Shown here in pieces: positions 2,179 to 59,400 of a stretch of DNA of 64,000 nt (positions are counted from its first letter, which is position 1; every line of letters starts with the position of its first letter). Both the position numbers and the translations under genes were made by a program. Location: the NCBI GenBank assembly GCA_008632985.1, contig QPGO01000076.1:186001-250000 (forward strand), in the 5' to 3' direction. The DNA comes from Psammoneis japonica. Its lineage: Eukaryota. Under the pieces are notes generated by a model, which saw nothing but the letters and a program-made list of their open reading frames with translations, did no database searches and was not told the DNA's origin.

Positions 2179-3902
2179 ATGGAATATTCAGACGAAGACG
2201 ATTACGAATACGCCTATTCGGATGAAGACGACGACAATGTCAATGACAACGATGAGAAACAAAGTCAAGACGATGACGATGATGAATCGGAAATGGAATG
2301 GGAAGAGTCGCAACAACCCGAGGAAAATCCCAACGCGGCACCCTATTGCAAGCCCCGTGAGTTTTATGTGTGTTGGTACTGATTTCACGTAGAATTCTAC
2401 ACAAAAATCTCACTCGTGTTTTTCTAATTTTTAGGCTCTGGAATCACCATGCTTCCATCGGATCAACTAGTTCCCGAAATGAAGCGCCGTTTAAAAGACG
2501 TCATGGAGATTCTCGACGTACCCGAGTGTGCCGCTGTCGTGTTGCTACGAGAGCACAAGTGGTCTCAAGAAGTACTATTGGAACGGTGGTACAACAATCC
2601 CACCAAGCTTCAACAAGCCTGTGGTGTGCTGGGGAGGTGTAGTAGTAACAAAAAGTCGTCTCGAAAAAGCACAAATTTGTGTGAAATTTGTTATGAAGAC
2701 GATCAACCCATGTTGGGTATGCCGTGCGGACACGAGTTTTGTACGTCCTGTTGGAAGGACTTTTGTTCCGTCATGCTCCAGGAGGGACCCGCCTGCGTCC
2801 GTACGACGTGTCCGCAGGCGTCGTGCGTCGAAGTGGTGACCGAGGTGGAACTTCAAGCGGCATTGCCGGAAGCTCTTGGCAAATTTGAAAATTACCAATT
2901 GCGCTCCTTTGTCGAGTCCAATGCCTTGACACGGTGGTGTCCGGGACGTGGCTGTGAACAAGTGGCGTGTGCGGCCCATGCGAGTACGTTGGAAACGGAA
3001 AGCATTGCACACTGTACCAAGTGTGATACGGAGTTTTGCATTGTGTGTGGAGAAGAACCGCACGCGCCGTGTTCGTGCAAGGAATTGGCGGTGTGGAACG
3101 AAAAGTGCCGGAACGAATCGGAAACGGCCAATTGGATCTTGGCCAATACCAAGCCGTGTCCCAAGTGTTCTTCGCGTATCGAGAAGAATCAAGGATGCAA
3201 CCACATGACGTGTCAGCGTTGTCGACACGAATTCTGTTGGATCTGCAGTGGTGATTGGAAGGACCACGGTGCCAACACGGGCGGGTACTACAAGTGCAAC
3301 AAGTTTGATGCAGGAGGCAATGCCGACGATCAATCGGATGCGGCCCGGGCCAAGCGAGAGCTGGATCGGTATCTGCATTACTACAAGCGCTATCATGCGC
3401 ATGCCGAAGCGCAAGCCTTTGCCAAGAAGCAGTTGCGTGAAACGGAACAACGCATGGTGTTGTTGCAAGAATCCAATTCGGATGCCAAGTGGACCGATGT
3501 GGAATTTCTCAAGACGGCCAATGAGCAATTGGTGGAGTGTAGGCGTGTTTTGAAGTATACGTATACTTTTGCTTACTATTTGACGGATGATACCAAGAGT
3601 ATGCAAAAGGAACGCTTTGAGCATCATCAAGAAATGTTGGAACGATTCACGGAGAACTTGTCCGAGCTGTCGGAGAAACCGTTGGCCGAGATGGATCGAA
3701 CCGATGTTGTCAATCAAGTGAGTCATGTGGTTGTCTCTGCTGGTATTGTTCTTGTGTGTGTGCTTTGATTTGTACTCATTATTGTCATTTGTAACGATTG
3801 CGCTTGTAAATCACACAGACTCGAGTCGTGGACCGCTTCATGAAGAACATTCTCAAGTATGTCGAGGATGGCATGGAAGATACGCTTGGCGGGGGAGTAT
3901 AA
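2179..3902 (+). CDS. ARI: Ariadne-family RBR E3 ubiquitin ligase; exons 2179-2356, 2435-3717, 3819-3902
   Basis: Acidic N-terminus, RING1 (CEIC..CGHEFC..C), IBR (WCPGRGC..C..C..FC..C..EPH.PC), RING2 (KPCPKC..IEKNQGCNHMTC..C..EFCWIC) and Ariadne domain (YLHYYKRY); GT-AG introns join in frame. Confidence 0.93.
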
Positions 3903-4768
3903 GGCGATCCCAACCATTTGCAGTACAGTACGACAAAGGCCGAGGACGTGACGCGATGCGATGCGATTGGAGCAACGGAGCCTTGCTCCTGTGAAAGACT
4001 CGTACGGGCTTTTGACTACGCTACTTTACAGGCGTTTCACAAGAGACATGGGTAGGACATTGTTTCTTGGAGGAGCGTTATTTTAGCAATATAGCAATCA
4101 CGACATTTTAGTTACTAGGAGTACAAGTATAGCAAAAGGAGATGGTGCTGTCTTTTTAATAGAAGAGCTGGATAGAGTTAGATTGCGGCAAGGATTTGCC
4201 GGTCAAATAGCCGCGGCGTTGCAGTACAAGTATATACATACGTTGACACCAATCGCACCATGCCACAACAGTGGAAGCTATCGGCTTCCTGCTGGACTTG
4301 CAACGTCGAGGCTTTCCCAAATTCTACCCTGACGGCCCGTCCCGAGGAAAAGCGCGCATTTTGGCTGTGGCTAGTATACAACTAGACGAAGAGATTTTTC
4401 TTAAATCTTCGTCAATCGCAATCCCTTGCTACAGATGTAGAGAATCTCCACCTGGCTAGACACAGCATAAGCCACAAGATGGATCATAGTGTGGTGGGTG
4501 AAGCCATGAAATACAACAAAGAGGATGTGCGTGCACACAACGAATGATTGTTCTCTGTGAACACTCGTTTCTGAGAATGTAACCAGTGCACTTTCTCAGC
4601 CAACAATGCACACTACGACAGGAACAATCACGCCCGTCTATGCCACATGGGCCCCCAAGGCCTCACCTCTGGATGGAGGGAGCTGGAAGTTTTCTACAAT
4701 TGCCTTCTATCTCACAAATCCAAACCTCCATTTGTCTCTTGCAACTTCCACCAAAATCAATTAATCTC

Positions 4769-5345
4769 TCACATTGAAACAAACTTCCACTTTCTGCACA
4801 CGGAATCATCGTGTTCCTCAACCGCCGTGATCACAAACAAAGAACCAGGTCGAAAAAGAATTTCTGACTCACCCTTGAATTTGGATTGCTTTGTTACGTT
4901 CACACCCGATCGACTTTCAATCTTGAACAGTGCATTCTTGCTTGCACCAAATTTACAAGCAACATGCTCTTTCAGAGAGGCACTCACAAAAGCCGGGTCC
5001 ATGAAGTTGGCTCCAGGACGCAACGAACAGAAATGTGCTCTACCAATGTTTGCTTTCAATCTTGAACAGTGCATTCTTGCTTGCACCAAATTTACAAGCA
5101 ACATGCTCTTTCAGAGAGGCACTCACAAAAGCCGGGTCCATGAAGTTGGCTCCAGGATGCAACGAACAGAAATGCACTCTGCCAATGTTGGCACCCCAGT
5201 GGACTGCACCTTGAAACACTGGACAATTCCGCAACTTGCCCATTGCCTTGATGACAGCATCTACATGGGCTTTTACTTCCAAACTCAACTTTCCAGAGAG
5301 CAAAGCGGAACTCATCTGCTTGCAGCCACCACCTGTGTATCACGC
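4769..5345 (-). pseudogene. Decayed R-S-E class (ART/exoenzyme-like) ADP-ribosyltransferase domain
   Basis: Translation YTGGGCKQMSSALL..AMGKLRNCPVFQGAVHWG..FMDPAFVSASL..LFKIESRSG.NVTKQSKFKGESEILFRPGSLFVI matches ART motifs YT..Y..., VYRG, STS and ExE; frame broken by an internal duplication. Confidence 0.75.
4914..5189. repeat. 139-bp tandem duplication inside the ART pseudogene
   Basis: ctttcaatcttgaacagtgcattc...ccaatgtt begins at 4914 and again at 5053. Confidence 0.92.
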
Positions 5346-6695
5346 ATCACCTTCTTGTTGGTCTTGCAATTAAATTTCAGCTGTTTCTTGACAGTGTTCA
5401 TGAAAAGTGCAAGCACTTGCTTTCATGCCAACTTGACTGTTTTCTGCTCCATCAAGTGAGCCTTCAATTCCTCCACGGACCGATCCGTGTGAACGCGAGC
5501 TCAGCCAAAAGTGCAATTCCCAAATTTTTGAAAGCATCGTCTCCCTGCACAAGCTTCTTCACCAACATTGCATGCAACAATCTGTTGAGAGACACAAGGA
5601 GAAAACAAGTTTGTCAGTTTCTTTTGGGCAGACAGCTGGGCAAAACAAACAAAAAACATGAAGAACAGACAGGTCTCCAGACGTCCATCTCTGATGGTCT
5701 AAAAACAAAGGTTTGGGGCAATGCATCTGCTGAGCCACGAAAGTTTTGGCCGAAGCACAAGTGGCAGCAAGTCCTTTTTCAATCCAGTCCTGTCTCAAGG
5801 ATCCTGGATCAATTCTTGATTGACGTGCGAGAAGAACATGATGTTTGTGCAGGTGGGCCACACCCCCGATGAGCATCATGGGTGAATGCCCCCCTTGTCC
5901 CAATCCAACACTTTCTTTTCAGCAAGCACCAGCATTTGACCGCTGGCCCACTGCATCAGTGTCGAATGTTTGCACAGCCATTGTCTTCCCATGCAATCAC
6001 AGATGAAAGAGCAACCGGCCAGCTCTGACTTCCCTTCACAAAGCGCCTGTTGAATGAGAAGTGAGAACAAAAGTCGTGTTGTTTCCCTTGTTGATTGATG
6101 GGAGGTGAGCAATGAAAAGTGCCAGCAAGCATTGGGGCTGTTTTGTTTTTATGAGTGACACATTTGCCATCACAAGCGATTTGAGTTGATCAATTGGACT
6201 TGAATTGTCTGTCTGTCCTTGTCGGGTTCAGTGACCGCCGCACATCTCACATCTCACATCCACCATGACGAGACAACATGTGGCAGAGCTTTGCGAACAG
6301 TGATGCCAACAAGACTGCAAGAAACGAGACGACGAGAAAGAAACGAAACGTGATCAGTCACGCTGATAATCACATTGTATGGTGTGCTGGGACTTGCTAC
6401 CTAATTTTAGCATTTGACCGCCGCGGTCTCCGAGGTCGGCTTGGGAGATCTGAGATCTGGCAACAGCATTATCCGCCCAAGATTGAAGTTGGTTTTCCGG
6501 CTCTCTAATTTCGGATTTGTACTTATGCCAATGATGCTAAACGTATGACAAACAACATTATCTGGCTTGGGTGTTTTGGACATGGAAGGGTGCCTCTATA
6601 TGCTTGGTTAGACAACATCTATAAGTGAATACGTGTCGAACGTCAAGGAACCGTGGAATACGATACTATGTATCAGTCTCTGTGTAACTAAATCA

Positions 6696-7689: not shown

Positions 7690-10600
7690 TCGCAGCCACA
7701 TGTGTGCGCAGACCAAAAAGATCTTGTGTTGGATGTTGCCAGTGTGCATCTGAGGGGATGGAAGGAGTTTCTTAAATCTCTGGCAGAAGCACATCAATCT
7801 GTCGTGACTGGGGCTTGGCACAATTGCAGGATGGGAACAAAAAAGAAGCTCTTTGAGCACGCATTGGATGAACTGCTCTTTGAAATTTGGCCACCGCATG
7901 GGCTGGCTTCCAATGACCCACAGCAAAATGAAAAGCCCTCATTGACAAGCTTGGTGAAGTCTTTGGTCAAAGACATGTTGTCACCAACAATCTTGGTTTT
8001 GTCTCATGCTGGGGGGGAATCTCAAGACGATGCTCTTCAAGACAAAACAAAAAGTCAAAGAGTGGCTCTGAGTCTGAGGCAAGTTTTTGTTTTCCATCAG
8101 TCTGGCCAGTGTTGTGATGCACTTGTCAGCATGTGCTTCAGAAGTGACTTGCTGTGCCTGTGTGGCAAGAAGTTTGTTGTGTTGGTGTGCATGGACAGCA
8201 GCTTCTTCTCATCATTTGTGTGTGTTTTGCATTGTGTGTTCCCTCCCTTGACATCTTGGACAAGACACTGCTGTCATCATCAGAAATGTGTGTCTTTTCC
8301 CAGTTGTTGTTTTCTGGACATGTTTTTGTTGATGCCACTGGTTTTGTGTTCATTGTCGAGGAAATGCTGATCACCCTCCAGGTGTTTGGTGGGTTGACAT
8401 GTCATCCACATGACTTTTTCCAGCATGTTTTCAGGCACCGTGTCACCTTTCCCACCCTTTTTGCGAGGGAAGCACTCCTCAATGGAGGGCTCTTTGCCAC
8501 CAGCTTGCAAGGGCATCACATTGTTTGCACACTTCTTCTTGTCAGAAGAGGTCTTGCCCATCTTGGGCACGCTGCTTGTCTTGGAATTTGAGGGCGCCAC
8601 ATGGTGCAGGAGATCTTGGTGTTTTTTGTTTTGCAAAAGTTGCTGAGGCAATGAAGGGCTGCTCAACCTGTCTTGCAAAGACATTTGCAATCACACCACA
8701 GTCCATGAGTTGGCACAAGCTGTCACACACAAGCCATTGTCCCTCTGTCTGTCTGTCATCCAGCACTTGCTCCATCTGACCATGACGCTGTTCACCTGCA
8801 TGCATCATGCTGACAATTCTGCTGGTGCACTGGCGCATGTGCATGTGATGGGTGTCATGTGCTGGGGCATGCCAGCACACATCATTTGTGCCAAGGCAGA
8901 CTTGTTGGAGAGAATGACTGTGCAAGAGTGCAAGAGGGCTGCAAATTGCAACAACAAGGGTGGGGGTGCAGGGATCCTCCCTTTCAAACGCATGGCACCT
9001 GCCCCTGTGAATGACCCAAAAACCCACCCATGAGTTTGAGACAGCAGTTGTCAAGCAACCCTTCTTGCCCCCAGCGACCCACTTGAGGGAAACCATTTTT
9101 CAAGTCCAGAAGTGCTGAAAACAAGTGTGGCTTTTGTTTGACATGTTGACATCGACTCCAGCAAAATTGTGCCATCAACCAAGGGCCAGAGTGTGTGAAA
9201 AAGCAGACAGAGCAACCTCAAGAGCACAGCAAGTCACATGCCCAGAGTTGCCATGCCAACATGACTTCTGCCCCCTCTCTTGTGCAGCAACCATTGCTTT
9301 GGTGTTGCACTCACATGTCACATGCTGACAATGACAAAAATCATTTCAAAATCAAGCATGGGTGCTGCGCTTCCAAGTGCTGCAGTGGCCGTGGCAATGG
9401 CAAAGCAAAAAATCAGCTGACGAGAAGGCAGCTGAAAAGATGGAGCTGAAGTGTTCAATGAGAAGGCTGCAAAATGGTTTGGCATCAGGTGCTGCTGCAA
9501 AAAGAAGAGTGAGCAAAAGCACAAGAACAGCATCCCAGGCAAGCTTGGCTGTTTCCTTGCTTGTTCTTGTTGGCATGACCACAATTCTTTGTTGATGCAG
9601 CATGAGCGTGCACCAAAAACCTTTGGCTCAATTGACCCCTGGCACATTGTTCTTTTCTGCAAGTGCAGACACTGCAAGAAAGGAGCTTGTTTGTGGGAGA
9701 CAATGACAAGGATGTGAAAGATGTGCACAGTGCTCCCATTGAATGCACCAGTGAGTGGAAGGATCCAGAGATTGCGTGCTTGCTTGTGCACAGCAGTGGC
9801 AAACATGCTCCATGAAATTCACAATGGCACAGCAAACTCCACTGTCATTGAGAGGGCTGCATGAGCAATCTGCCAGATGACCGATTCAAGGGCTGTGATG
9901 TGCATCATCTGCCTGAGGCACCCAAAGCTTTGCTGCAAAGGAACTCCCCTGTGCTCTGAGGAGGAGTGGAGCAATTGCCAGTGCACACAAAACAAGAAAG
10001 ATGGGGCAAAGAGCAAAAATGATAGACGCAAACAGCTCTTGCCTGAGAAAACACACACCTGCTCTGAAACCACCTCATCTTGAGCAACACAACACAAAGC
10101 CTCCAGTCATTTGTGACACAATGCTTGCTTTGCCACATCCATGTCTGCCTCTTCCTCCATCAAAATGTGCTCAGCAACACAGAGATGTCATCTGTCCAAC
10201 TTTCACAAAAATCTGGCCATTGTGATGGTGCTGGGTGTGTGCTCAGGTCTGTTGCTGAAACACAAAGAAAGCCAGATCCAAGCCCAGCTTGACTTGCATT
10301 GTGGGAGGAGGAAGAGTCACCTGACTTTTGCTTGCCTTGTCATTTGCAGATTTGTCTCCATGTGAGTGGCACAAAGGGTGGGCACCTGCCCCCAAGAGGA
10401 AAGAGCTGGCAAACATGCCAAAAGATGGGATGAGCAAAAACAAAGATTGAAAATTCAAAAGCAATGGGGGCAAAACTCTCCAGAAATGTCTCACGGAACA
10501 CACAGCTTTGGAAAGATGGCTTGCCTTTTCTGTGCATGGACAGGCATGCAACAATGGTGGATGCCATGAAGAGCACCCACCACAAGACCCTCAAGCACAC

Positions 10601-11690
10601 CAAACAATGCCAAATGGATGCATCATTGCCAAAGGACATGGGCGCCATTCACGTCAGTCCGGTGGAGCATGTCCCTTCAAAGTGGAGGTGTCCTGCCACA
10701 AGAGAGCAAAGAGGCAACTTGAGTCAGACAAATGCTCCTGCAGCTCTGTCACAAAAATTGATCAGACGACTCACCCATGATTTTGTTTTTCAAAAGTCAG
10801 TGGTTCCTTCACACAATCCAGGCACAGACGAGGATGTTGCTTTTTTGGTTGACCAGGTCAGGACTCATGAAGCAGTGGTGCAAGGCTGGAGCCTCCAACG
10901 CTGTGCTTGAAGATGTTCTTTCAAAACTTCTGATCAAACCAGCCTCTCTCAAGTTTGACGAGCCCAGAAAATGAAACTCAACAAAACTGCAAGTGTTGGT
11001 GAGTGTGCTGCTGTGCCTCCTGCTGCCAAAAAGGTGGGGTCTGATGGCAATGACCTTGAAGATGATGGAGGTGACAGAAAAGCTGGGCATTCTTGTCAAG
11101 ATTTGGGAGCAGTGCCATGAGCAAAGCCAGCCATCTAACAGAGGGAGCCAAAAAAAAAACCAACAACAGGCTTGACCAATTGTTGCTTTCTTCTAAAACT
11201 GCTGTGACTTTGATGTGGAGTGGATCTGGGGCTGAAAGTGGCCAACACTCCAACATGTGTCACTGAGCTCCCTTCTTACAAGGGAAAGGCCAAAACAAAC
11301 CCTGCACCAGGTTGGCTGGGTGTTGGTAAATTGTGTGTGTGGTGAGCATGACAGGTGACAAATGTTGAGCACTTTGCATGCAGAGTATGTCATGTCCACA
11401 ACTTCCTTTTCTTTTGCTGATGAGGACCTGCTGCAATGAGTGAATCAGTGGCAATGATGTTTTTGTCACAGCACCGCTGAGGCAAGTGAGCCCTTGGTGC
11501 ACAACAATTTGCACCACCAGCTGGCATGGTGCCTCCATTTTGTTCAGCTGCGTTGCTTCAATGCTGCAGCATGTTCTCGCAAAAGCTGTCTGCAGCTTGG
11601 TCGGACAGGCTCACTGCTTGTTTTGCTTCATCCTCCAGCTGAAGGATTCCATGCACATTCCTGCTTCTGCAACTTTGCAGATGATGAACT
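7690..11690. other. TpA-depleted tract 2 (decayed repeat/pseudogene DNA, family not identified)
   Basis: About 5 TA in 4 kb by eye; CpG also low; overlapping Tyr-free, Cys/His-rich ORFs in all frames. Confidence 0.9.
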
Positions 11691-12127
11691 GTACCATAAT
11701 GGCATGGGCACGAGAGCACGACCATTTCAACGTTAGAACTGCGCAATGGATTATTCAAAAAGCAGGAGCAATTGATCAACATTAGACACGATTCGCGCCG
11801 TGTAAGGACCGGTGGATTTTTTGGCGGATGCGATGTGAAACACCTTGTTCAACTGGATAGCACCAAAACAGTTCAGCAAGATACATAGACTTACATTGCT
11901 GTTACCAAGGATCAAGGAATTGGCGAAATGTCTGGGGAGAAAGAGATCCCTACTCCTAATCATCATTGTGTCAACGACGGACCGTTCAACACACAGGCTC
12001 CAGTTATCTCGGGCTGAACAAGGTGCCTAAAGGCACATACCTTTATGGCAAGGTGGACACGGTACGCGTCTACGACAGAGCTCTGGATCAAGAAGAACTT
12101 CGTTCCGAATTGTTTCGTAACTACTAG
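11630..12127 (+). pseudogene. Decayed LamG/concanavalin-like jelly-roll domain gene straddling the tract 2 border
   Basis: Fragments DSMHIPASATLQMMNCTIMAWAR, QDT*TYIAVTKDQG and LYGKVDTVRVYDRALDQEEL match LamG motifs (TIxAWV, W.hIAVT, G.IDEVRIY.RAL); stops and frameshifts present. Confidence 0.65.
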
Positions 12128-12644: not shown

Positions 12645-13751
12645 TTATTGTTGCTTCTCGTGTTCTGCTGAAGCATTGGCAACGATTTGCCCAAACTCTT
12701 TGCGAACCACCTTTCCATAGACTGTTGTGGCCCAGTACGTGTACCGTTGACTCCCCCGATGAATGCAAACGACTGCCAATCCAGCCAAGAGTGCCAAGTG
12801 TATTCGCTTATCTACCCAACACGCTAAAGCAAGCACCGTTGTGGCAAGAAAGACCAAAAACGCATGAACCGCCATGTAAAACATAAAGGCAGAAACCTCA
12901 TAATCATCATTTTGTTCTCGCTGCAACGTTTCAGCCATGGGACGATCCGGCCAAACCCGTTGGGCAAACTTGCGATAGAGCCCTTTGCGAACGGTATTGT
13001 GAAAGACGGTATCAAATCGCGGTGGTTGGGCACGATTCTTGCGAGGCAAATCAATGCCACCCAACAGAGCCATCCAAGTGACGTAGCAAATGAACCAGAG
13101 AAAGTAAAGAATCATGCTGTTTCCCACAATCGAGCCACCACCGTTGCCTCGAGGGAAGAAATGCACGTCTTGCAAATAGTCGAGCGAAAAGACGTTGGGC
13201 CAAGCTTGTTGAATTTCCGTTCCGTGCCACATGAATGTATAGGCCAACATGGGAGGAAAGACGTGAATGAATACACCCGACATGCTGTTGATACTGTGAA
13301 AGACGGTCGCCACAAAAGGGAGTAGCCCAGCAGCACCCAAGAGACCACCGCAACTAACTCCAATAAAGCACATGTAGAGTTGTTTACGCATTTCATCCGA
13401 CACGGAGGAAGAGACCATGAGTGCAAAGAGGACCGCAGATCCAATCGAGTTCATGACCCAGCAATAATCCATAAAGTACAGGATTTTATTGAGCGGTTTC
13501 GCCGAGAATTCTAACTGCATTTTCTTGGGGATGAGCACAACGTACTCTACCAAATAAAGTAGCCAAAAGTGCTGGGGATGCACCGAAAAGACATGAGCCA
13601 CAACGAGGCAGTTTACGACACCAAGAGTAAAGTTCGTTTGATTAAAGCCTTCTGTAATAAGCTTGTTGGAAGATGCATCAATAGTTTCCAGGACCTTTTG
13701 AACCGTGACCATTTCTGCTGAACGAAACGTTTGCTTGGATCTGACAGACAT
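12645..13751 (-). CDS. GPC1: Glycerophosphocholine acyltransferase Gpc1-like (DUF2838) multi-pass membrane protein
   Basis: NFTLGVVN, YFMDYCWVMN and VFHSINSMSGVFIHVFPP motifs; several TM segments; intact 368-aa ORF. Confidence 0.75.
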   Translation of the reverse strand: MSVRSKQTFRSAEMVTVQKVLETIDASSNKLITEGFNQTNFTLGVVNCLVVAHVFSVHPQHFWLLYLVEYVVLIPKKMQLEFSAKPLNKILYFMDYCWVMNSIGSAVLFALMVSSSVSDEMRKQLYMCFIGVSCGGLLGAAGLLPFVATVFHSINSMSGVFIHVFPPMLAYTFMWHGTEIQQAWPNVFSLDYLQDVHFFPRGNGGGSIVGNSMILYFLWFICYVTWMALLGGIDLPRKNRAQPPRFDTVFHNTVRKGLYRKFAQRVWPDRPMAETLQREQNDDYEVSAFMFYMAVHAFLVFLATTVLALACWVDKRIHLALLAGLAVVCIHRGSQRYTYWATTVYGKVVRKEFGQIVANASAEHEKQQ

Positions 13752-14099
13752 GCGGCTGTATTGAACGTCGCCTGGATTGAGATTTCGCCTGGTTCGTCAA
13801 ACATGTTGATCTGTTGGCAGCTTGAAAATCAATCGCAAATCTTGAGTTGTTGGAGGTTTTGCAGCAGGGCGGTTCTTCGTGCTAGAGTCGTCTAACACTC
13901 TACCATCTACTACACTTTATGCACAAAAAAGTAAAACAATAACCGCAGCTGTCGCAGCTGAAACAACAACCAAGATGATGGATCGAGAGGGGATGTGCGC
14001 ACTGCAACCCGGAGAAAGTTTTGCAAGAAAAGGCGTCCAAGCTTTCAGCAATCTGTCTTGAAACTAACGAACGAGAAACACATGATCAAATTGAATCAT

Positions 14100-17000
14100 A
14101 ACTGAGAAGGCATGACATTGTTCATTCATCATCATCATTGCTCAAGGCAAAGAGTGCAGCAAGTGCCAGAAATTCAAACATGTCAATCGCTCAATGAATG
14201 AGAGCATGCCACAGAAACTGCCCGCTTGTCCTCTCCGGCAGGTGGCCCGTCAGGAAGAGCCCTCTGGAGAAGCCCCAGCTCAGAATTTTTGGATGACTCT
14301 GCCTTGCCATCAAATGACATGCAGGAGGAGCCAAGGCTTGGCCCAACCTTCAAGGAACTTAGATTTGCAGATGACAACCTGAGTTGCAAATCTCTCCAGC
14401 ATTGATGTTGCAAGATGCTCAAGCAAGCTCGTTGTGTGAGATCCACAACAAGAGGAAATGATGCTGTTGCGGGATGGACTCCAAAGTCAACAAGAAAGTT
14501 TGCTGTCTGTTCTTGGGTGTACAACCAACAGTGTCAGCTGAATGGTGCCATGGAGTTGTGCACCCAGCACCCCAGAAGGAGGAGGGCTTTTCAGTGTGCA
14601 ATCCCTGGCCAGAAGAATGGCTTCTTGAAATGGGCAGGATTCACCCCACTCACACAGCATTTTGACCATTTTGCAGAGGGTCAGACAGTTGTGGTGGCAC
14701 AGTCTCTTGCAGTGATTTGGAGCCAAACCCCACTCATGGACAAGTTTTTTTGCACAAGCCACAGCTTCAAAGTCAAATGGGAACGTTTTCTCATTGCTTG
14801 CTGGCTCTTTTTGTCCAGCTTGACAGTTCAACAATCTGAGGTGTTGAAAGGTGGCATGGTGTTGTTTTTGCAGATGACAACCAGCTGGCAGTTTGTTCCA
14901 ATGGAAATGGGTGTGTCCACCGGTTGGGTTTTTCATTTTGCAGAACGCACAATGTCCTGTGCCACATTGTTTTTGTCTCATTCAAACAATGTGGTGCCCT
15001 GGTGGCCACACTGGCATGTGAGGTTTGGATGTCAGCAAGGGATTTCCACCTTTCTAAAACTGGCTTTTCCACTTGTTTCAGGCTAAAGTCAGCCAGCACA
15101 AGCACAATTTGCCTCTTTTTGTCTGCAAGCAATGCGTGTTTGTGAGAAAATCATGGACAATCTCAAGGAGTTGGCCGTTGTCATTCGCTGCTTTCAAGGA
15201 ACAACACAGGGTGAGCACCATCAGCATGATGACATGTGGAGCATGATCCCTGCCTGTCTGCACCATTGGCATTTGTTTGCAAAGACATGAGGCAGATCCC
15301 AACAACATCTGTGGGAGGGGGGCTGACTCCACTCAATTGGCTGGTGGTCAAGATGGGTGCTCTGCACCAATCTCTGTTGGGCATGCTGGCTGGTTGGCCA
15401 AGCATGATGATCTTGTTGGGCTCCTCACCCCAGCAAAACAACCACTCAAGGGCATCCACTCTGGCACACCAAACAGCTTGCCTTTCATTGTGGGCATGGT
15501 GGCATGATTCTTGAATGAAGGTCAACAAGAGCATGGGGTGACACTCAGCAAAGAAAGTGGAGTGCAGCTGTGCTCTTTAGATTTGATGCAAGGGGGGTCA
15601 CAGAAAGAATCTGACCACCAGAGCTGGGTGGCAGCCCACTGGCTGGCCAGCCAGAGCAGTTTGGGTGGTGCAATGTTGTCTTTTTCTTGCTCTTTGCACA
15701 ACTTGCCCCCTGCATCTGGGACCCATGATGTCTCAGTTTCTGCATTGGGAATTGTTCTGGCTGTCAGACAGCACCGCTCACCTCATGCTGTTGGTTTGCA
15801 TGGGGTGGAAGAGAGGACTTGTTTTGCCAGCAGCTGTGCCTCTGTGGGGGCTGTTGCAATCTCCAGCAATCATGCACAACAAGCCTGAAACAGCCCACAA
15901 AACATCATCATGAGGGCAGAAAGAGGAGAACATGGAAAGGCAGAAGGGTGTGCATGCATCATTGTGGTGCATGATGGAGCACTGTGTGGCTTTAAAAGTG
16001 GCAGTTTCTCGTGGCAATTTTCACATGCCACAGCTCTTCATGATCCAGGATTTGAGCCAACTTGCATGGATCCTGGCATTTGCACTCAAGCAGGTGAGGT
16101 GGCTGAACTGTTTGAGTCAGGAAGCAAGGAGCACACACCGGCAAATGCAAATTTGGCAGATTTGCTTGCAAGCATCATCACTGGAGAGCAACATTGGATT
16201 GTCCAAGTGGGAACACATTTGACAGTGTCTTGGCAGCCAAAGCCACACACCCACACAGCCCACTGTGCTCACATGCAGTGTTTTGGCTTTGAAGAAACCT
16301 GGGTTGTGTGTGCTGTCTCTCCTGTGCAAAGGATGTGTTTGTGCTTGGCTCAGAAAGGGTTTTTGTGGAGAAGAATTTGGCATCACTTGTGTGCAAACAA
16401 CTGGGCAGCCAGTGGCAGACAAATGCTAGAGAGCTCAGAGTTGATTGGGCTGTTTGCATGACCATGGCTGCCAACAACAGCCATTTTCAAAGAAACGCTG
16501 CTCATTCTCACCAAAGAAGACTCAAGTTTGAGTGAACCCACAGGCTGCAACCACAAGTGAATGGGCAGGCTCAAAGACAGAAAAACAAGATGTTGGTTGT
16601 CAGTTTTCTGGCCACAGCCCATGGTGCATTGCAGGTGAGCACAAAGCCTTTTTTTGCTTGGATCTTGCGAATGCTTGAGGTGTCCGGCAGGCAATGTGCA
16701 GTGTTCGGAGCCAAGACCAATTTTGCAAGACTCCCTTGCACCCCCTTTTTTGATGATCCCCCCTGCAACATGATGTGATGGGCTCAACAGCACTGAAAGA
16801 ATGTTGCCAATTTGGCCAGAGGACACCAGGGCTTGCACACTCATTTGCCGCATGACAGCAGCACTCCAGCAGCAGAACCATGTGCAGGCTTTGTCAACTC
16901 CTTGCAGCAAACCAAGGGCAGCCCGCAGGTTCTGTTGACATTGCCAAGAAACCACCTGATTTGGAGCCAGGATTTGGCCTCAAGAGAAGAAGAGGCATGC

Positions 17001-17790
17001 ATTTTTGCAAAACAAATTTTTAAATGTGTGCCAGCAATTTTTTGGCACTTTGCATTGTTGTGTTGCTCAACTCTGCCCAGCTCAACACAAACACCATGAT
17101 TTGCTCATGACGCGGCTTGCTCAACTCTTGTCCCCGGCATTGTTGGTGTGGTTGTTGACATGGCAGTGCAGCACCATTTTCTGTGTTCAACTTGTGCACA
17201 AATGCAAACAATTGACTCATCTGACTTGTGCTGGTTGTGGACAAAATGCACCTGTGATTCTCTCCTGTGAGCAAGTGCTGTGTGCTGGTGGCCAAAGAGA
17301 GAGTTGGTCAGTGTGGCACAACCTCAGAGAGCATCAATTTGGGGGTCAAGCTTGTTGTGTCCATGAAAGCAAGTGCTGCAATGTGGGCAACATGTCATCA
17401 GAAATGACATGGTGAACGGATCTTTTGGCCAAAGCAAGTGTGTTGTGCTCGAGTGTCTGTCGGCCCCGCAGTGAGCTGCAACATTGGAGAGCAAAGAACC
17501 AGGCAGGAAAAGGCCCCTTTCCCACAGGTTTGCTGCCAAAGCTCTTTCGAGGAATGAGAGAAAGCAGCCGATGAAACAAAAAATGGTTCTCAATGACGCG
17601 TTCCAATGTTGCTTGATTCAGGGGAGGATGACTCTCAACGGGTGATGAGGGCGTGTCCTCTCCCCTTGTCGGTCTCTCCATCAGGAGGCGCTGCAAACCG
17701 CAACCAAGGCACGCACAGGCAGAAGGCACACAGACAGGCAGGCATCAGACACACAACACCAACAACCATGGCCGCGTCGCATCACATCAC
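14100..17790. other. TpA-depleted tract 3 containing retroelement remnants
   Basis: Under 10 TA in 3.7 kb by eye; ends just upstream of the SDR start codon. Confidence 0.9.
15910..16210 (+). mobile_element. Ty1/copia LTR-retrotransposon remnant (RT and RNase H fragments fused by deletion)
   Basis: ALCGFKSGSFSW..ALHDPGFEPTCMDPGIC resembles copia RT ALYGLKSSG..W..L...GF.P...DP; HTPANANLADLL resembles the RNase H end N.AD.LTK. Confidence 0.65.
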
Positions 17791-17817
17791 GCCGTCATTA
17801 CATCACAACAATTGCAA

Positions 17818-19028
17818 ATGTCGCTGTCAAACGTTGTAGGAATTATTTCAGGAGGTGCTTCTGGTTTGGGTGCAGCCGCTGCCAAGTGCTTGTGTAAGAA
17901 TGGAGGACGTGTGTTGGTTGCAGACTTGTCGCATCAGCGAGAAGCGTTTCAAAGCTTATTGAATGATGCCGACATGACGAAAGGAGAAATGGTATTTTGT
18001 GAAACGGATGTGACAGACGAACAACGGGTATCGAACGCTCTTGAAATGGCAAAAGAAGCTTTTGGTGAACCAGGTAAATTGTAAACGAGAATGGGGCGTT
18101 TGGTGCTGCGTTGATGAAGTTGCGTGTTCAAAATGTGGAAGTCTAACATACGCTTATGCTCGCTCTGCGGTCTTCTGTCTTTTTGTTTTCCGCTTGCGCT
18201 ACCTTAAACCGAAAGTCAATGTTGCCATAAACTGTGCTGGCATTGCCATTGCTCAGAAAACATTAAAGCGAGACAAGCAGGACAAGGCGTCTTTCATTCC
18301 GCACACATTGGATTCCTTTTCGAATACTATACATGTGAATTGTGTTGGCAGTTTCAATTTGGCGAGATTGGCATCCCAACAAATGGCAAGCCGCCCTAAA
18401 GATGAAGAAGGATTGCGTGGGTGCATTATAAACACAGCGAGCATTGCAGGTCAGAGTATTTCGCTGCTGCAGAGTTTGTATGACTTGTGTAAGCTCAAGC
18501 TGACCTTTCCCCTGTTCTTTCTCTTGTTTTAGCTTATGACGGACAAATTGGCCAGGTCGCCTACTCGGCCAGCAAGGGAGCAATTGTTGGAATGACACTT
18601 CCAATGGCTCGAGATCTCGCCCCTTTTGGTATACGAGTCATGACCATTGTGAGTTTTCGAAGTCGTAGTGGACTGCTTAATTGACGTTTCGTCTGCTAGT
18701 GCCTCGATGAATTAATTTTTCTTGTTTAACTTTGATGCTGTGCTATGTTAATAGGCTCCTGGGCTGTTTAGGACTCCATTGCTCGAGGCTCTGCCTGATG
18801 CAGTTCAACAAGAGCTGGGAAGCATGGTGCCTTGCCCAAACCGATTGGGACACCCAGAGGAGTTTGGAGGTAGGGTTGATCATACATGTCTGTCTTGGTC
18901 GTTGTTTTTCAAAAAAAAGTTCCTCACATCGTGATACTTTAGAGCTCGTGGTATCGATACTCAGAAACCCAATGTTAAACGGCGAAGTCATTCGGCTGGA
19001 CGGTGGATTGCGAATGCCGCCAAAATAG
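17818..19028 (+). CDS. HSD17B10: 3-hydroxyacyl-CoA dehydrogenase type 2-like SDR; exons 17818-18073, 18216-18449, 18533-18648, 18755-18869, 18943-19028
   Basis: [45 protein letters not shown] and [19 protein letters not shown]; all introns GT-AG and in frame. Confidence 0.92.
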
Positions 19029-19545
19029 AAGGTTGGGCGGGGCTATCGTTTCAGGGAGTGGTTCTGCGTAGGTGCTCTGACATATCCTAGTGCATTGGGG
19101 GACACGGTTGATTCTCCAGAGTTTCCCTTGAAATAAATTGAAATTTGCCAAAATGCTTGTAGCGACGGAGGGGAGTGGGTGGGAACCGGTACTTATATTA
19201 GGAACGAAAGCTCAAGGCAATGCCTGACGAAAAGACTTCAAAATCATGGTCAATGCTGGCAGCTAAGCTAGCTTTTCTTACCCTTTGTGCAAGCTGTGAA
19301 CTAAACGGGTCTTACTTTTCTACTAGAGGGAAAGCTAGCTCCAAGATTCTTCGAGCTGCGGTGAAGCCGCAGTCAGTATATCAAGCCATACGGTTTCGTG
19401 GTCGATGGTCGACCGTAAAGCTTTATCTTGCGCACCGTTCAAACAGGCTGTGCCAGCGGGAGAGCGTGAATTGGGAACCATGCGTCGCATGTTTTGAATC
19501 ATCATGCTGCAAGAAGTTCGCGGATCCAGATTCAGTCGTGTCAAG
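18915..19545. repeat. Segmental duplication copy 1: last SDR exon, intergenic DNA, and an internally deleted remnant of the 7TM gene
   Basis: 18933-19450 aligns with 21033-21550; 19470-19540 matches the 7TM start and upstream region at 23075-23210. Confidence 0.88.
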
Positions 19546-21014: not shown

Positions 21015-21550
21015 CAGTTTCTCACAACGTGCTACTTTAGAGCTCGTGGCATCGATACTCAGAAACCCAATGTTGAACGGCGAAGGCATTCGGCTGGACG
21101 GTGGATTAGGAAAGTCACCAAAATAGAAAGTGGGGCGGTGGCTATTCTTTCAGGGGGGCGTTCTGCGTAGGTGCTCTGAACCAGCTTAGCGCATTGGAGG
21201 ACGCAGTTGGTTCTCCAGATTTCCCAATGAAATAAATTGAATTTTACCAAAATCCTTGTAGCGACGGCGGGGAGTGGGTGGGAACTGGTAATTATATTAG
21301 GAACGAAAGCTCACGGCTGTGCCTGACGAGAAGACTTCAAAATCATTGTAAATGCTGGCAGCTAAGCTAGCTTTTCTTACTCTTTGTTGCAAGCTGTGAA
21401 CTAAACGGGTCTTACTGCTCTACTAGAGGGAAAGCTAGCTCCAAGATTCTTCGAGCTGCGGTAAAGCCGCAGTCTGTATCAAGCTATACGGTTTCGCGGT
21501 TTGATCCGATGGTCGACCGTAAAGCTTTTTCTTGCTCACCGTTCAAACAG
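21015..21550. repeat. Segmental duplication copy 2: degenerate SDR last exon plus the true 3' end of the 7TM gene
   Basis: tactttagagctcgtgg(c/t)atcgatactcagaaacccaatg and downstream sequence shared with copy 1. Confidence 0.88.
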
Positions 21551-29209: not shown

Positions 29210-30776
29210 GTCAGTCACTGGACCAGGCAGCAGGGGTTGGATTGGATGTGCCTCTGCCTCTTGACCAGTCATCATTCTTGAAGGCCTCCACACCAAACTT
29301 GTCGATCGTACAAAAGACAAAGCAGCAGCAGCTCCTGCAAGCAACAGCTTTGCTCGGCTGCTCAAAGCCAGTGCGTGAAAATGGCCTCAAGTCTGCCACG
29401 TCAAGAGCCTCAAGCTTGGCTCCCAAAACCACCTTTTCCTTCTCTTCCTCCTCAGACAAAGCTCTTTGTTTGTCAGCAACAAGGGACGTGTTCCAGCCGC
29501 ACGTGAACCAAATCGTGCACAAAAACGACATTTGCGCGATTTTTGCGCGGTCCCCAACTTACGATCGAACTTTCACCACCAAAAGTATAGATTTATACAA
29601 ATATATATGTTTTGCAACACTAACAAGACTCGTGTGAGTGTTGCAATATCATTGTTATTGTGCTATCTATGTTTTTCATTGCGTAAAAAGATTCGTAACA
29701 CAACGGATGATTTTCGGCGAAAATATTGCCGTTATTTGGATGTTACCTAAATATATCTTTCTACGATGCTACTTGGTAGGTTTTCTACCTACAAAAAAAT
29801 CTCAGTATAAATCTACTGACGTACAATCAGTATTGAGTCTACTGAGGAAGTTTATGATACATATCCCATGAGGATTTGAATACCCCTCAAAAAACTATTT
29901 AAATGTCCATACTCTAGAAGCCTATAAAAGTCAATCCGTCTAAGTATTTTTATTAAAATGCTATATACACTAAAATATACATAAATTATATTCCAAATCC
30001 GATTGTCGTTTTGTGCGTCACCTGGGACTGGAACACGTCAAGGGTCTCCCACCATTCATGATCATGAAATTTGTCCTCGGAGACAAACTGTCGGCAACGA
30101 TTGCCAGTGTAAATGGCAATGCCCCAATCAAGAATCCTGTCAAATTCAAGCCTCCCCATGAATCCAAGCACACATGCTCCCACCCAGGAGTGGTGACGAC
30201 ACTCTTCCGATTGATCCAAGCTGTGAACAATGAGAGGGCTTTCTTGGAGTGATCTTTCCTCTTTGTTGCATCTCAAAGAGAACTCAGCTCTTGGGATGAG
30301 CCATGTTGGCAAAGAACAGGTTTACCACATTGCGCAGATCATCGTTGCACAAGTCTGCCAAAGAGTCTGGAAAGGGAAAAGTTCTGACATCCTCAACACC
30401 GTGATTGACGCAGATCAGCTTGATCGACCCAGATTCTTGTCCGTCGACAAAAATCTTGGCCTTGTGCCTCCAGGGAAAAACATCCAACTTTGATGAGAAC
30501 TGAACCTGTCCAGAACCATTTGGTCCCTCAGCACCATCACTTGTGCCCACTTGTTCGTCAAGCGTTCCCGTCGAAAGATTCTAGAATCGAGAAGACGCTG
30601 AAAGGTCTTGCAGGAACAATGAAGCGGCCCATGCTCATCCACGTCGGTTCTCAACAAGACTTGCAACAACAAATCCTCATGTTCAAACAAGAGACTAAAA
30701 CCATGCTTTTCTTCTTCTTCCTTTTGTCGAGGACAGTCACTGTCATCAACTTCAAGACTGTTTTGTTGCTGTCCAT
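29210..30776 (-). pseudogene. Host-like gene (possible N-terminal F-box-like segment) interrupted by the MITE
   Basis: Removing 29485-30039 and one TSD gives in-frame HEWWETLVADKQRALSEEEE; N-terminal LFEHEDLLLQVLL..HGPLHCSCKTFQRLLDS resembles an F-box. Confidence 0.55.
29485..30039. mobile_element. Non-autonomous DNA transposon (MITE) copy A, 555 bp, TIR GACGTGTTCCAG..., 4-bp TSD AAGG
   Basis: Left end gacgtgttccagccgcacgtga, right end tcacctgggactggaacacgtc; AAGG on both sides; homologous to 57073-58023. Confidence 0.9.
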
Positions 30777-56499: not shown

Positions 56500-59400
56500 C
56501 CGCTGCAATGATTTTGCAAGAAGCAGAAATTTGATTGCTCCAAGTGTTTTGGATGGGACTTGTTGGTGAAGAAACTCTGCAAGAAGGTTGTCCTGCCCAG
56601 CCCAACACTCACATCATTGGTGGGTGGGAAGTTGCTTGCTTCCGCATGCTGGACATGTTGAGAGATTTGCTCAACGTGAACAAGTCCATGCAGGCACGTT
56701 TCCACCACAAGTTGTTCCTGTCAACAATCACAATCATGGCAAGACCATGTCCAACAAATGGCGCTCCAACACATTCAATGACCTCAGAGAGAACTTTGAC
56801 TGTGAGAAAGACTTGCTCTTGCCAGCTGGCTCGTGCACTGATCAGAAGGGGGCTGATGCCTGTCAAAGGCATCCCCTCAAACCCTGGTTGTTTTGCGCTC
56901 TCCTTCTTGTCAAGAGGCATGTGCAGGAGCAAGATTGTGCTTGGCATCACCTTGGGTTCATGCTGAGCATGGACAAGGGTGGGGCGAGTTTCTTCTTTTG
57001 ATGAGAACGGCAATGTGAACAAAGACGGACAAGCGATTGAGTCTTCTTCGTCAAACACACAGGCTTGCCATGGATGTGTTCCAGCCGCACGTGAGTCAAA
57101 TTGTGCACAAAAATGACATTTGCGCGATTTTTGCGTGGTCCCTGACTTACAATCGAGATCTTTCACCACCAAAAGCACAGAGTCGATCCCACGTTGAGAC
57201 CCACCTGAGATCTCCAACCATTGAAATTTCTCTGTGTGCACGCAATGCAACTTTTCATGCATGGATGTGAAAGATCTCATTGAACTTGTCACAAAAAAAA
57301 TCCTCCCCTCTTTTTCAAATTTGGTTGGTTCATGAGTTTCAGCGCACCAACCAAAATGTCCGATGAGCCGATGCTGACAGGCAGGTGGTGTTTTAAGACC
57401 CACGTGGAAATGCGCGTGATTTCAGTGCTGGATGTCAGATGCACCCTGCAAGGGCCAAGGATTTTTCTGGAGGGTGAAAAGGGTGGCAATCAAATGCTCT
57501 CATTGTGCTGTTTCAAATGCGATGCCTCTCGATTTTTTTCGACCAACAGAAAATTCCATGCATTTTTGCACCACGCCCCATGCGGGTCTTAATTTGTGCC
57601 GGGTCTTGTTTTGGGATGACTCTAGATTTGTGCATTTTGCAACACTGACAAGACTCGTGTGAGTGTTGCAATGTCATTGTCATTGTGCTGTCCATGTTTT
57701 TCATTGCGCCAAAAGATTCACAACACAACGGATGATTTTCGGTGAAACCATGCCACTTGGCAGGTTTTCCACCTGCAAAGAAATCTCAGCATAAATCCAC
57801 TGAAGTGCAATCAGTGTTGAGTCTGCTGAGGAAGTTTGTGAGACACATCCCATGAGGACTTGAACACCCCACAAAAAACTGTTTAAATGTTCATGCTCTG
57901 GAAGCCCATGAAAGTCAATCCGTCTGAGCATTTCACATGAAAATGCTGCACACACTGAAAGACACACAAATTGCACTCAAAATTGATTGTCGTTTTGTGT
58001 GTCACCTGGGACTGGAACACATCCATGACATGTTGTCTTTTCTCCTGGAAGATTTGAAGGCATTCTTGCAGGCAGAGCCTCCCCTTGTGATGGCAAACCT
58101 GGGTGGTGTTTGCCAGCTCATGCGCATTGTTCTTGCACAAGGGCCGACATGTGGTGACCAGAAGTCACAAGACTTTGTCTGTGGATGAAAAGCAGCCAAT
58201 GGGGGTGGCGCCAGTCAAGTGCATTGCTTCTGTGCATGTGTTCTGCCAATGATGTTACAAACACTTCCCGCCCAACCAACGAGCTTGGCCTTTCTTGTTC
58301 TCTGATCAATGTGAAGATTGTGCCCCGTCTCAACAAGCTGGCACTCTCCACTGCATCACTCGGTGAGGACAGTCCATTGGATGGCTGCCTCAAGAGGCAA
58401 AAGAAGCTTGCGCTGGCTCTTCTTTCACGTCTGCACACAATGCGCCCACTGAGAAATGCCTTTGATGGTGTCAACTTCAGAGGCAATCCATGGGGTGTGT
58501 TTTCAGCAATGGCTGACAATCACCTTCATTCCTGGAAAGCGGGTGGTGCAGAGAATGTTGCGCAAGTCTCACACTTTGGACTCACCAAGACAGAGAAGAA
58601 AAACTTTGAGACCAAGCTGAAAGCTGTCATCAGAAGCTGCAGGTCCATGGCCTTGTCACAATGCCCAAGAGGTTGCTTGAGTTCTGGCCCCAGCAGAGTG
58701 ACTCTCCAGGCCCACTCTGAAAAAATGGGGTTGCTGTTCCACCTGAGTGTGGTGATGCAATTTCTCAAGCCATGTGAGACAATGGAAAAGGCACATGAAT
58801 GACAGAAAAAGAAGTGCAAAATGTTTCCCTCCACCACAAAACTTGCCTCTCTCTGCAAAAAGCCAAAGGAAACCAAGAACAAAAAGGCAAATGCAAGCAA
58901 CAAGCCACCTTTCAAAGTTTCTGAAGGAATCAATGACAACTCATCTTCTGACAAGAAGAGCTCCAGTGGTGGCAAAAAACCCCGCTCATCCAAGACTGCT
59001 TGTGGACGCAACAACAAGCAACAAAGAGTCAATCGGGATGCTGCCCATGCCAAGAAAAATGCGCAAAAGGCCACTGAGGAGGTGGCCCAAAAGGCTCAGG
59101 AAGCATCCTCCACGGAAGAAAATGACAAAAAAGTGCTTCCACCCACTGCTTTTCCCTGCAGAAAGGACACGTTTTTTGCCACTGACCATGGTGGCAAAGA
59201 TCCTTTTGACTGCAATTTGGAAATGATCCAGTGCATCATCAAGCACCTGAAGCCACACGGATTTGCTTTTTCTGGAGGATGAATTCAATGAGTTTCAGCC
59301 AGATCACAGTTGTTCATTGAATCTTTGAAAATTTTGACAACCATCAAAATCAAGGGGATGATTCTCACCCATCACATGATGTCCTTGGCTCCATTGCATG

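Follow-up and report, generated by a model that had tools for sequence, protein, structure and literature searches.

Hypermutation of TpA into TpG or CpA is already documented, solely in one 2026 preprint on the unrelated alga Bigelowiella natans, the available part of which describes a hypermutation, specific to TpA, that strikes integrated viral DNA (Mettrop et al., bioRxiv 10.64898/2026.01.13.699255). Within two integrated viral regions, 230 of 231 de novo mutations are given there as A-to-G or T-to-C, all of these falling on TpA (10.64898/2026.01.13.699255). We analysed a 64-kb stretch of DNA from the diatom Psammoneis japonica (the window, meaning the whole of that stretch) in which a comparable loss of TpA is seen. 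As far as the available part of the preprint goes, the two cases have in common transitions at TpA that lead to TpG or CpA on both strands, and many affected sequences that are left without any annotation. They differ in host, which is a stramenopile here and a rhizarian chlorarachniophyte in B. natans, and in degree, TA loss being far more complete in the diatom (o/e 0.03-0.12, against a Rho of 0.45 given for the NCLDV region of B. natans). CpG is also lost in the diatom, whereas CpG is absent from the main text of the preprint, such as it is available (10.64898/2026.01.13.699255). Finally, the described targets in B. natans are integrated viral DNA, whereas the tracts in the window, known from sequence alone, contain no recognisable viral or transposon domain. 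A search of the literature, with subscription journals outside its coverage, found no report of TpA loss in diatoms and no paper on diatom ADP-ribosyltransferase (ART) genes.

Repeat-induced point mutation in fungi (RIP; Neurospora and others) is similar in logic, with dinucleotide-context transitions, sharply bounded repeated segments, and duplicated genes that are riddled with mutations and killed. RIP, however, makes TpA from CpA and thereby enriches TA, whereas TA is destroyed here and some repeats in the window are untouched. The sequence of interest in the window is a damaged ART gene. Its motif order, YTGxGY, N-x-A-L-R, VYRG, S-T-S and E-x-E, is recognisably that of the R-S-E ARTs, with ExE and both Ser retained; unlike those enzymes, it has Trp for the catalytic Arg, has lost the invariant Asn and the Arg of ALR, and is broken in frame. 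We consider it likely that this locus is a dead copy of an R-S-E ART gene, lying in a probably repeated diatom tract of 1.85 kb that bears a TA/CG-to-TG/CA hypermutation signature. The features concerned are as follows.

4513..6366, no strand: TA- and CG-poor tract containing the relic, defined by composition.
4769..5345, minus strand: relic of an R-S-E ADP-ribosyltransferase domain, the whole homology span including the duplicated segment (Pfam ART, tblastn, alignment with 24 homologues).
5055..5339, minus strand: N-terminal in-frame piece with YTGGGC, a degenerate N-x-A-L-R (S..L), VHWG and the first SAS (translation, column counts).
4772..5053, minus strand: C-terminal in-frame piece, which takes in the second half of the tandem duplication (with SAS at 4984-4976) and the intact ExE at 4870-4862 (translation, Pfam ART).
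4914-5052 and 5053-5191 (span 4914..5191): 139-bp tandem duplication (TRF, 2.0 copies, 97%; register comparison; repeat search).
5340..5342, minus strand: TGA in frame, immediately before the YTG motif (A*YTGGGC; translation).

The minus strand of 4769-5345 is an ART domain, far above chance. The original prediction had called it an ART pseudogene on the strength of three strings, all of which are present on the minus strand where they were placed, and the identification is borne out by the homology searches and the broken frame. The open reading frame 4769-5104(-) scores 37.6 bits against Pfam ART (cut-off 22.3, E 1.9e-9) and 22.5 bits against ADPrib_exo_Tox, just below the cut-off of 23.4 (E 8e-5); the N-terminal piece by itself reaches merely 14.5-15.6 bits with Pfam ART. 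When the C-terminal 94 aa were compared by phmmer with 1.84 billion representatives, 113 relatives were found at E<=1e-3, nine of them at E<=1e-10, and in tblastn these 113 homologue proteins match the 64-kb window only within 4760-5339. For the codon alignment that had been proposed at the outset, no close intact orthologue was found by phmmer or by a word-based protein search with the C-terminal piece (33 candidates, all with E above 1e-5). The closest relatives overall, at 50-56% identity, are anonymous proteins from metagenomes; among named proteins the closest is an NAD(P)(+)--arginine ADP-ribosyltransferase with five domains from the diatom Cylindrotheca closterium, with only 36% identity to each repeat. 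Viral contigs contain 12 loci with ART relatives, at 30-42% identity only, which is no pointer for or against a viral origin.

All column counts are based on a MAFFT alignment of the relic with 24 homologue domains, in which VHWG falls on VYRG, SAS on STS and YTGGGC on YTGxGY, as the original prediction had assigned them. YTGGGC starts at 5339 on the minus strand. The string NCPVFQGAVHWG (minus) includes the Trp codon at 5198-5196, in the column of the catalytic Arg, which is Arg in 24/24 homologues. VSAS is part of the tandem duplication and hence present twice, at 5123-5115 and at 4984-4976, and the relic has S-A-S in both copies at the S-T-S site; both outer columns are Ser in 24/24, and the middle column reads T15, S5, A3, C1, making Ala a natural variant. 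The catalytic E-x-E is kept as E-S-E at 4870-4862 (Glu 24/24 at both columns). In N-x-A-L-R the invariant Asn has become Ser and the conserved Arg has become Leu, both changes outside the TA/CG class. A derivation of NCPV from NYPV, also proposed, found no support in the alignment, where the six residues most often seen at that position (L10, K3, V2, I2 and others) do not include Tyr.

As read from its sequence, this copy would be unable to make the enzyme, having a frameshifting duplication, stops before the domain and Trp at the catalytic Arg; the disabling lesions would be the duplication and the stops, not point changes alone. The ART frame is shifted because 139 bp is not a multiple of three. 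Further stops lie upstream of the TGA at 5342-5340 in the same frame, and the C-terminal piece ends at a natural stop after ...KFVSM. Neither the duplication nor the stops, nor the apparent multi-copy state of the tract, figured in the original prediction. The duplication is assembly-based, since no contig bridging its junction or the whole stretch is among the same-organism contigs listed. Its halves are 96-97% identical and differ at CG/TG (5019), TG/CA (5036-5037), TA/TG (5042) and one copy-border position, one of these four being ambiguous, for TG-versus-CA can derive from TA or CG. Since the halves have diverged at TA/CG-type sites, the process continued after the duplication.

Base composition sets the relic apart. 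Its 577 bp contain 7 TA, with a TA o/e of 0.17 and a CG o/e of 0.54, compared with 0.59+-0.16 and 1.00+-0.17 in a background of 743 windows of the relic's size, among which values as low occur in 0.7% (TA) and 0.4% (CG). The surrounding tract of 1854 bp is poorer still in TA, with 16 TA in all (TA o/e 0.12, CG o/e 0.51, TG/CA o/e 1.60), and its borders are sharp, the flanks being normal at TA o/e 0.90 and 0.83. Approximately 37% of the 64-kb window lies in tracts with a TA o/e of 0.03-0.12 and a CG o/e of 0.15-0.58; in the large islands TA o/e is 0.03-0.09 and TG/CA o/e 1.45-1.84, and at 8001-11000 some 2.9 kb contain a single TA, whereas the TA-rich flanks and genes in the window have a TA o/e of 0.6-0.9. 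The tract that holds the relic shares its mutational signature with the large islands filling about a third of the window, and the dinucleotide counts indicate that nearly all TpA and much CpG have been turned by transitions into TpG/CpA. Cytosine methylation of transposable elements occurs in diatoms, and methylation-driven CpG decay resembles what is seen in the low CG o/e of the tracts against a background of 1.00, in the matching gain of TpG/CpA and in the CG-versus-TG/CA differences between copies; TpA loss is beyond its reach, however, and it accounts for the smaller component only.

An independent comparison is offered by two related segments elsewhere in the window.

29481..30045, no strand: AT-rich element (GC 36%) with 55 TA, unmutated, within a TA-free island.
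57072..58023, no strand: TA-depleted relative of 29484-30039.

The segment 29610-30039 has 47 TA, compared with 2 in 57635-58023. Across a block of 431 columns with 53 mismatches, 35 are TA in 29484-30039 against TG/CA in 57072-58023 and 5 are CG against TG/CA, with none in the reverse direction. Of the 47 TA sites, 16 have become TG and 18 CA in the depleted copy, and so both strands are hit, the two outcomes being roughly equal inside one copy. This sets the process apart from ADAR-type hyperediting, which takes A to G on the transcribed strand only, and it tells against an RNA-level origin in which ADAR-like A-to-I editing at UA was followed by reverse transcription and re-insertion of the mutated retro-copies: editing of the copied strand would be expected to yield one of the two outcomes only. 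Such an origin would fit the preference of ADARs for a 5' U, stated in the available part of the preprint (10.64898/2026.01.13.699255), and also the sharp end of the signature at the tract borders and the apparent multi-copy state of the tract, and yet neither the tract nor the islands yielded a reverse transcriptase, an LTR or a poly-A feature, the halves of a tandem duplication made at the DNA level have diverged at such sites, and the B. natans mutations occur, according to the same part of that source, in resident single-copy DNA (10.64898/2026.01.13.699255). We regard editing of RNA as very improbable, and DNA-level change on both strands as the better account.

Not every repeat is affected. 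The pair at 18918/21016 (550 bp, 88% identical) is not TA-depleted and its differences are symmetric; this pair and the untouched element at 29481-30045 imply that repetition alone is an insufficient trigger.

A comparison such as that of 29610-30039 with 57635-58023 carries no polarity itself, and it would be equally compatible with a TA-free original state, the TA-rich copies having gained TA through a RIP-like change of CpA to TpA; that classical RIP converts CpA to TpA is a point in favour of this reversal. The ART relic, being recognisable as protein-coding, supplies an outgroup-based arrow, which repeats compared in pairs are unable to give. Cys and His stand in the relic at two columns where Tyr is conserved (19/24 and 18/24), Ala at two where Thr is (14/24 and 15/24), and Val at an Ile column (13/23); the relic retains one Tyr, where the homologue domains have 4.8 on average and a minimum of 3. 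Scored at columns with at least 50% consensus among the homologues, its unique mismatches number 20 and comprise 5 of TpA class, 2 of CpG class, 3 other transitions, 7 transversions and 3 multi-step changes. The TpA class thus makes up 5/17 single-step mismatches against 4.4% expected from opportunity (p 7e-4), in a test that is small at 5 TpA-class sites and that takes consensus guesses from homologues of 38-56% identity as ancestral states. When the ART genes of the 12 viral-contig loci were classified alike as natural controls, the TpA class accounted for 5/177 (Fisher p 5e-4), and changes of TpA or CpG class made up 7/10 transitions in the relic and 12/67 in the controls (p 0.0015). Taken as a whole, the residue pattern of the relic against its intact homologues, together with Trp for Arg, points to TA as the ancestral state; the consensus residues of those homologues suggest the same for CG, with TG/CA derived. 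The original prediction that the relic polarises the mutation, with TA ancestral, is upheld by these counts. The reversed polarity, which leaves Cys, His, Ala and Trp in the relic at columns held by Tyr, Thr and Arg in its intact relatives, would also make of 2.9 kb with one TA (8001-11000) an implausible unmutated state beside flanks and genes at an ordinary TA o/e, and we consider it extremely unlikely.

The same alignment was weighed against a simpler view, that this is an ordinary pseudogene or a divergent ART in which SAS, VH and the terminal Cys reflect family variation and neutral decay without any context-specific process. SAS and VH, which had originally been offered as proof, do occur in intact homologues, the finding that the original prediction itself had named as contrary to it: three of the 24 have SAS and one has His at the VY position, and these two motifs alone are uninformative; Cys at YTGxGY likewise occurs in 1/24. 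Half of the unique mismatches (10/20) are transversions or multi-step, which indicates that the share of ordinary divergence is as large as that of the special process. The relic scores 82.5 and 98.0 bits against the family HMM, within the range of intact homologues (leave-one-out means 80.2 and 87.2), although this model is biased to the relic because the homologues were picked by similarity to it. On these figures the relic would have been only lightly hit. Set against ordinary decay are the position of the relic in the lowest 0.7% (TA) and 0.4% (CG) of the background, a ten-fold excess of TpA-class mismatches over the 12 natural ART genes, Trp in a column that is otherwise invariably Arg, and the concentration of differences at TA/CG-versus-TG/CA sites both between the duplication halves and between paralogous contigs. 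Decay of the ordinary kind alone seems to us very improbable, and a context-specific process acting on top of it is preferred.

The paralogous or allelic contigs from the same organism bear on whether the signature is real. Among the 40 differences listed, 28 are TA/CG against TG/CA, and the rest are made up of 8 other transitions and 4 transversions; at 23 sites that read TG/CA in the window, other copies keep TA or CG. Long reads are known to err systematically at modified motifs, and heavy base modification in heterochromatic repeats could in principle have misled base calling or polishing at TA and CG, leaving the gene perhaps less damaged than it appears. But k-mer contigs at ~55x from the same organism, possibly from the same sample as the assembly, differ from the window at 0-1 positions within the tract, and their length, up to 315 kb, indicates that the reads are accurate; the 23 sites, moreover, are paralogue variation and not a uniform error. 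A technical artefact is hence highly improbable, and we treat the substitutions as genuine.

Within the tract, 116 contigs of the same organism match with a summed depth of 100-885, compared with ~55 in the flanks, and the tract is probably multi-copy in the genome. The original description of the gene as "non-TE" is made doubtful by this. What kind of repeat it is was sought by domain searches. None of the 128 stop-free island ORFs of at least 90 aa has a match to a transposon or viral Pfam family, the sole matches among them being adh_short at 17632-18081 and two that are sub-threshold and at chance level; 19 long ORFs searched with Pfam gave no match inside the islands. Outside the ART part of the tract no Pfam domain was found (5340-6420 in three frames on each strand, 4300-4800 in the three minus frames), nor does the 270-aa antisense ORF at 4647-5459 have a Pfam match, and the tract borders bear neither terminal inverted repeats nor long direct ones.

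By analogy with the proposal for B. natans, the TpA component could be the result of adenine deamination of DNA on both strands, or of an equivalent T-to-C route, with repeated or foreign DNA as the target. The CpG component may reflect the usual loss of methylated CpG where repeats are silenced, and the ART copy would have been hit through belonging to a repeat family, not through its encoded product. For the wider reading we see about an even chance: a diatom genome defence with a RIP-like logic and the opposite chemistry, in which adenine deamination at TpA on both strands, together with CpG decay, would erase every TA in particular repeated or foreign segments (here some 37% of the window), with multi-copy host-type genes such as the ART family among its casualties.

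The gene relic is in itself unremarkable, and its value is that it is the only recognisable protein-coding sequence within the TA-erased tracts of the window. The much more complete version of the TpA process seen here would widen its known range to diatoms, which rank among the main primary producers of the sea. It also suggests a genome defence that deaminates adenine (or does something equivalent) in a targeted way, and in which gene families of ordinary appearance can be hit as bystanders. If the defence reading is true, its sharing with a chlorarachniophyte would mean either an old defence of the SAR lineage or a striking convergence. There is also a warning for annotation, in that tracts devoid of TAA and TAG stops yield long spurious ORFs on both strands. 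A diatom host is indicated by the neighbouring Ariadne gene, the named best matches of which are all from diatoms (Cyclophora, Nitzschia, Cylindrotheca and others), the top ones at 74-77% identity.

On the minus strand of 4769-5345, translation gives one protein domain in two pieces that overlap. Of these, the C-terminal one (ORF 4769-5104) matches Pfam ART, the NAD:arginine ADP-ribosyltransferase family, at 37.6 bits (E 1.9e-9; cut-off 22.3) and ADPrib_exo_Tox with an E-value of 8e-5, and the N-terminal piece reaches only 14.5-15.6 bits against Pfam ART. Comparison of the 94 C-terminal residues with 1.84 billion cluster representatives by phmmer returned 113 matches at E<=1e-3, nine of them at E<=1e-10, the top single-domain matches being 50-56% identical; each of 25 homologues compared with Pfam matched ART as well as ADPrib_exo_Tox. 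When all 113 homologues were searched against the window with tblastn the sole matching span was 4760-5339, in agreement with the ART span of the original prediction, and the three strings it had quoted are all present on the minus strand of 4769-5345. The top-scoring named relative lies outside the window: P0002, a 1636-aa protein of the diatom Cylindrotheca closterium, comprises five repeats, among which the segments aligning with the relic are identical, and its contig also carries one twin and two 923-aa relatives, so that ART domains are tandemly amplified in another diatom.

This relic is a dead copy, and not an old one. Tandem Repeats Finder, register comparison and a repeat search of the window sequence each place a 139-bp tandem duplication at 4914-5052 and 5053-5191 (96-97% identity); 139 is not divisible by three, hence the reading frame changes where the copies meet; this explains both the splitting of the domain into two overlapping ORFs and the second occurrence of SAS. 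The apparent junction is read from the window sequence, and among the contigs listed from a run of the same organism none crosses it. There is an in-frame TGA immediately before the YTG motif (5342-5340, minus strand), with further stops upstream in the same frame. In a MAFFT alignment with 24 intact homologue domains, the relic has Trp at the catalytic Arg column (24/24 homologues), and the N-x-A-L-R motif has Ser at the Asn column (24/24) and Leu at the Arg column (22/24). E-x-E is intact and both Ser residues of S-T-S are kept, all four columns being invariant (24/24), and the consensus residue is found at 60 of 86 conserved columns, those in the duplication being counted twice. The two pieces reach 82.5 and 98.0 bits against an HMM of the 24 homologues, scores that fall inside the range obtained for intact members by leave-one-out (means 80.2 and 87.2 bits); this comparison favours the relic since the homologues were picked by similarity to it.

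The relic is an ordinary dead gene copy, yet a valid marker of polarity for an unusual process that erases TpA. It is useful for this since copies compared in pairs give no direction, and the affected tracts contain no second protein relic that can be recognised. Scoring columns where 50% or more of the 24 homologues share a residue, we found 20 mismatches unique to the relic: five of the class expected from TpA to TpG/CpA (the TpA class), two of CpG decay, three other transitions, seven transversions and three multi-step changes. In the TpA class, two Tyr columns (Tyr in 19/24 and 18/24) have Cys and His, two Thr columns (Thr in 14/24 and 15/24) have Ala by way of a dinucleotide at the codon junction, and an Ile column (13/23) has Val. 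This class accounts for 5 of 17 single-step changes, compared with 4.4% by opportunity (p 7e-4) and with 5/177 under the same classification in natural ART genes taken from viral contigs (12 genes, of which some are near-identical to one another; Fisher p 5e-4). When transitions alone are counted, the TpA and CpG classes together make up 7/10 in the relic and 12/67 in these controls (p 0.0015). A single Tyr remains in the relic, where homologue domains have a mean of 4.8 and a minimum of 3. The central claim of the original prediction, that TA is ancestral, is borne out by the excess of the TpA class over opportunity and over the viral controls; at the ART locus the polarity TA to TG/CA is judged from few informative sites and consensus-based ancestral states. 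The motifs SAS and VH, taken as decayed forms of S-T-S and VY, are also carried by intact homologues (SAS in 3/24, His at VY in 1/24), which taken literally is the very outcome that the original prediction had named as refuting it; they therefore count only within the statistical pattern.

The relic lies within the ART tract (4513-6366), which holds 16 TA in 1854 bp (observed/expected frequency, o/e, 0.12; CG o/e 0.51) between normal flanks (TA o/e 0.90 and 0.83). Within the 577 bp of the relic there are seven TA (o/e 0.17), and CG o/e is 0.54, values as low being found in 0.7% and 0.4% respectively of 743 background windows. TA o/e is 0.40 for the whole window, and the shortfall is concentrated in tracts.

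Features of the window
2449-3768, plus strand: Ariadne-type RBR E3 ubiquitin ligase, ordinary host gene in TA-normal part
12645-13751, minus strand: DUF2838 protein, ordinary host gene in TA-normal part
35303-36844, minus strand: S49 peptidase, ordinary host gene in TA-normal part
About 7700-11700, 14000-17700, 27000-29480, 30046-30700 and 53200-64000: TA-poor islands, from dinucleotide o/e

The Ariadne-type gene neighbours the ART tract and its best matches (top matches 74-77% identity) are in the diatoms Cyclophora, Nitzschia, Cylindrotheca, Grammatophora and Pseudo-nitzschia; this identifies the window as nuclear DNA of a diatom and not of Bigelowiella. The islands show o/e values of 0.03-0.09 for TA, 0.15-0.58 for CG and 1.45-1.84 for TG/CA, with one TA only in about 2.9 kb at 8001-11000, and together with the ART tract they cover 23,493 of 64,000 bases (36.7%). 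G+C content is constant across tracts, as expected if TA to TG/CA and CG to TG/CA roughly offset one another.

Copies within the window display the same changes. A GC-poor element (36%) at 29481-30045 retains 55 TA inside a TA-free island; it has either inserted recently or escapes the process, and its relative 27 kb away (57072-58023) has lost nearly all of them. Over 431 aligned columns, 35 of the 53 mismatches are TA in the former against TG/CA in the latter and five are CG against TG/CA, with none in reverse, four other transitions and nine transversions; TA became TG in 16 cases and CA in 18. Between the halves of the duplicated 139 bp the only differences are at one CG/TG, one TG/CA and one TA/TG site and at one border position; the TG/CA site could have arisen from TA or from CG. 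Contigs from a run of the same organism reach a summed depth, which does not equal copy number, of about 55 in the flanks and 100-885 in the ART tract. The 116 contigs on 4300-6600 (22 at >=99%, 30 at 95-99% and 64 at 90-95% identity) are many and diverged on the ART tract, which indicates a repeat family. Among 40 contig differences listed, 28 are at TA/CG versus TG/CA sites, the window having the TG/CA state at 23 of these, eight are other transitions and four transversions.

Repetition alone is not the trigger, because the 565 bp at 29481-30045 are untouched and a 550-bp repeat pair with 88% identity, about 2 kb apart (18918-19466 and 21016-21571), is TA-normal (29 and 29), its differences being symmetric (4 versus 4 at TA sites, 4 versus 3 at CG sites). 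The changes are context-specific transitions with sharp borders, both TG and CA outcomes occur inside one copy, and divergence went on after tandem duplication. Editing of a single transcript before retro-copying would give one outcome only; hence the TpA component would act on DNA, on both strands, where adenine deamination and a thymine-based T-to-C route leave the same sequence because TpA is self-complementary. Repeats are methylated in diatoms, and the CpG component would most simply represent methylated-CpG decay in silenced repeats.

Pfam searches of 128 ORFs of at least 90 aa from the islands gave no match to a transposon or viral family, the borders of the ART tract have no terminal repeats, and outside the relic the tract has no further Pfam domain. 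It may be a mobile element, a fragment that was captured, or a gene family that has expanded. The tract looks multi-copy, which makes the "non-TE" label of the original prediction doubtful; its observation was confirmed and its interpretation stands for polarity, but neither for this label nor for the derivation of NCPV from NYPV, where the column (L10, K3, V2, I2 and others) has no Tyr among its six commonest residues.

Compared with fungal RIP, the process is alike in logic and opposite in direction. Full-text literature searches turned up neither a report of a TpA-erasing process in diatoms nor any paper on their ART genes. A mutation-accumulation experiment has been reported for Bigelowiella natans, in which two integrated viral regions acquired 231 mutations, 230 of them A-to-G or T-to-C and all of these 230 at TpA (bioRxiv 10.64898/2026.01.13.699255). 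By that account one alga already shows a process of this kind; the one seen here occurs in a diatom, is far more complete and is accompanied by CpG loss, and the main text of the preprint makes no mention of CpG, diatoms or ribosyltransferases.

In the islands TGA occurs at 25 per kb, TAA at 1.3 and TAG at 0.65, and the loss of TAA and TAG, leaving TGA as the near-sole stop, produces long spurious ORFs on both strands. One example, antisense to the relic (4647-5459, plus strand, 270 aa), is without a Pfam match, and gene callers may annotate such ORFs in TA-poor tracts. At the edge of the island 14000-17700 there is a fragment of adh_short, a short-chain dehydrogenase (17632-18081, plus strand, E 4.8e-10), where TA o/e is still 0.2; it could represent a host gene that lies on the border of an affected tract or extends partly into it.
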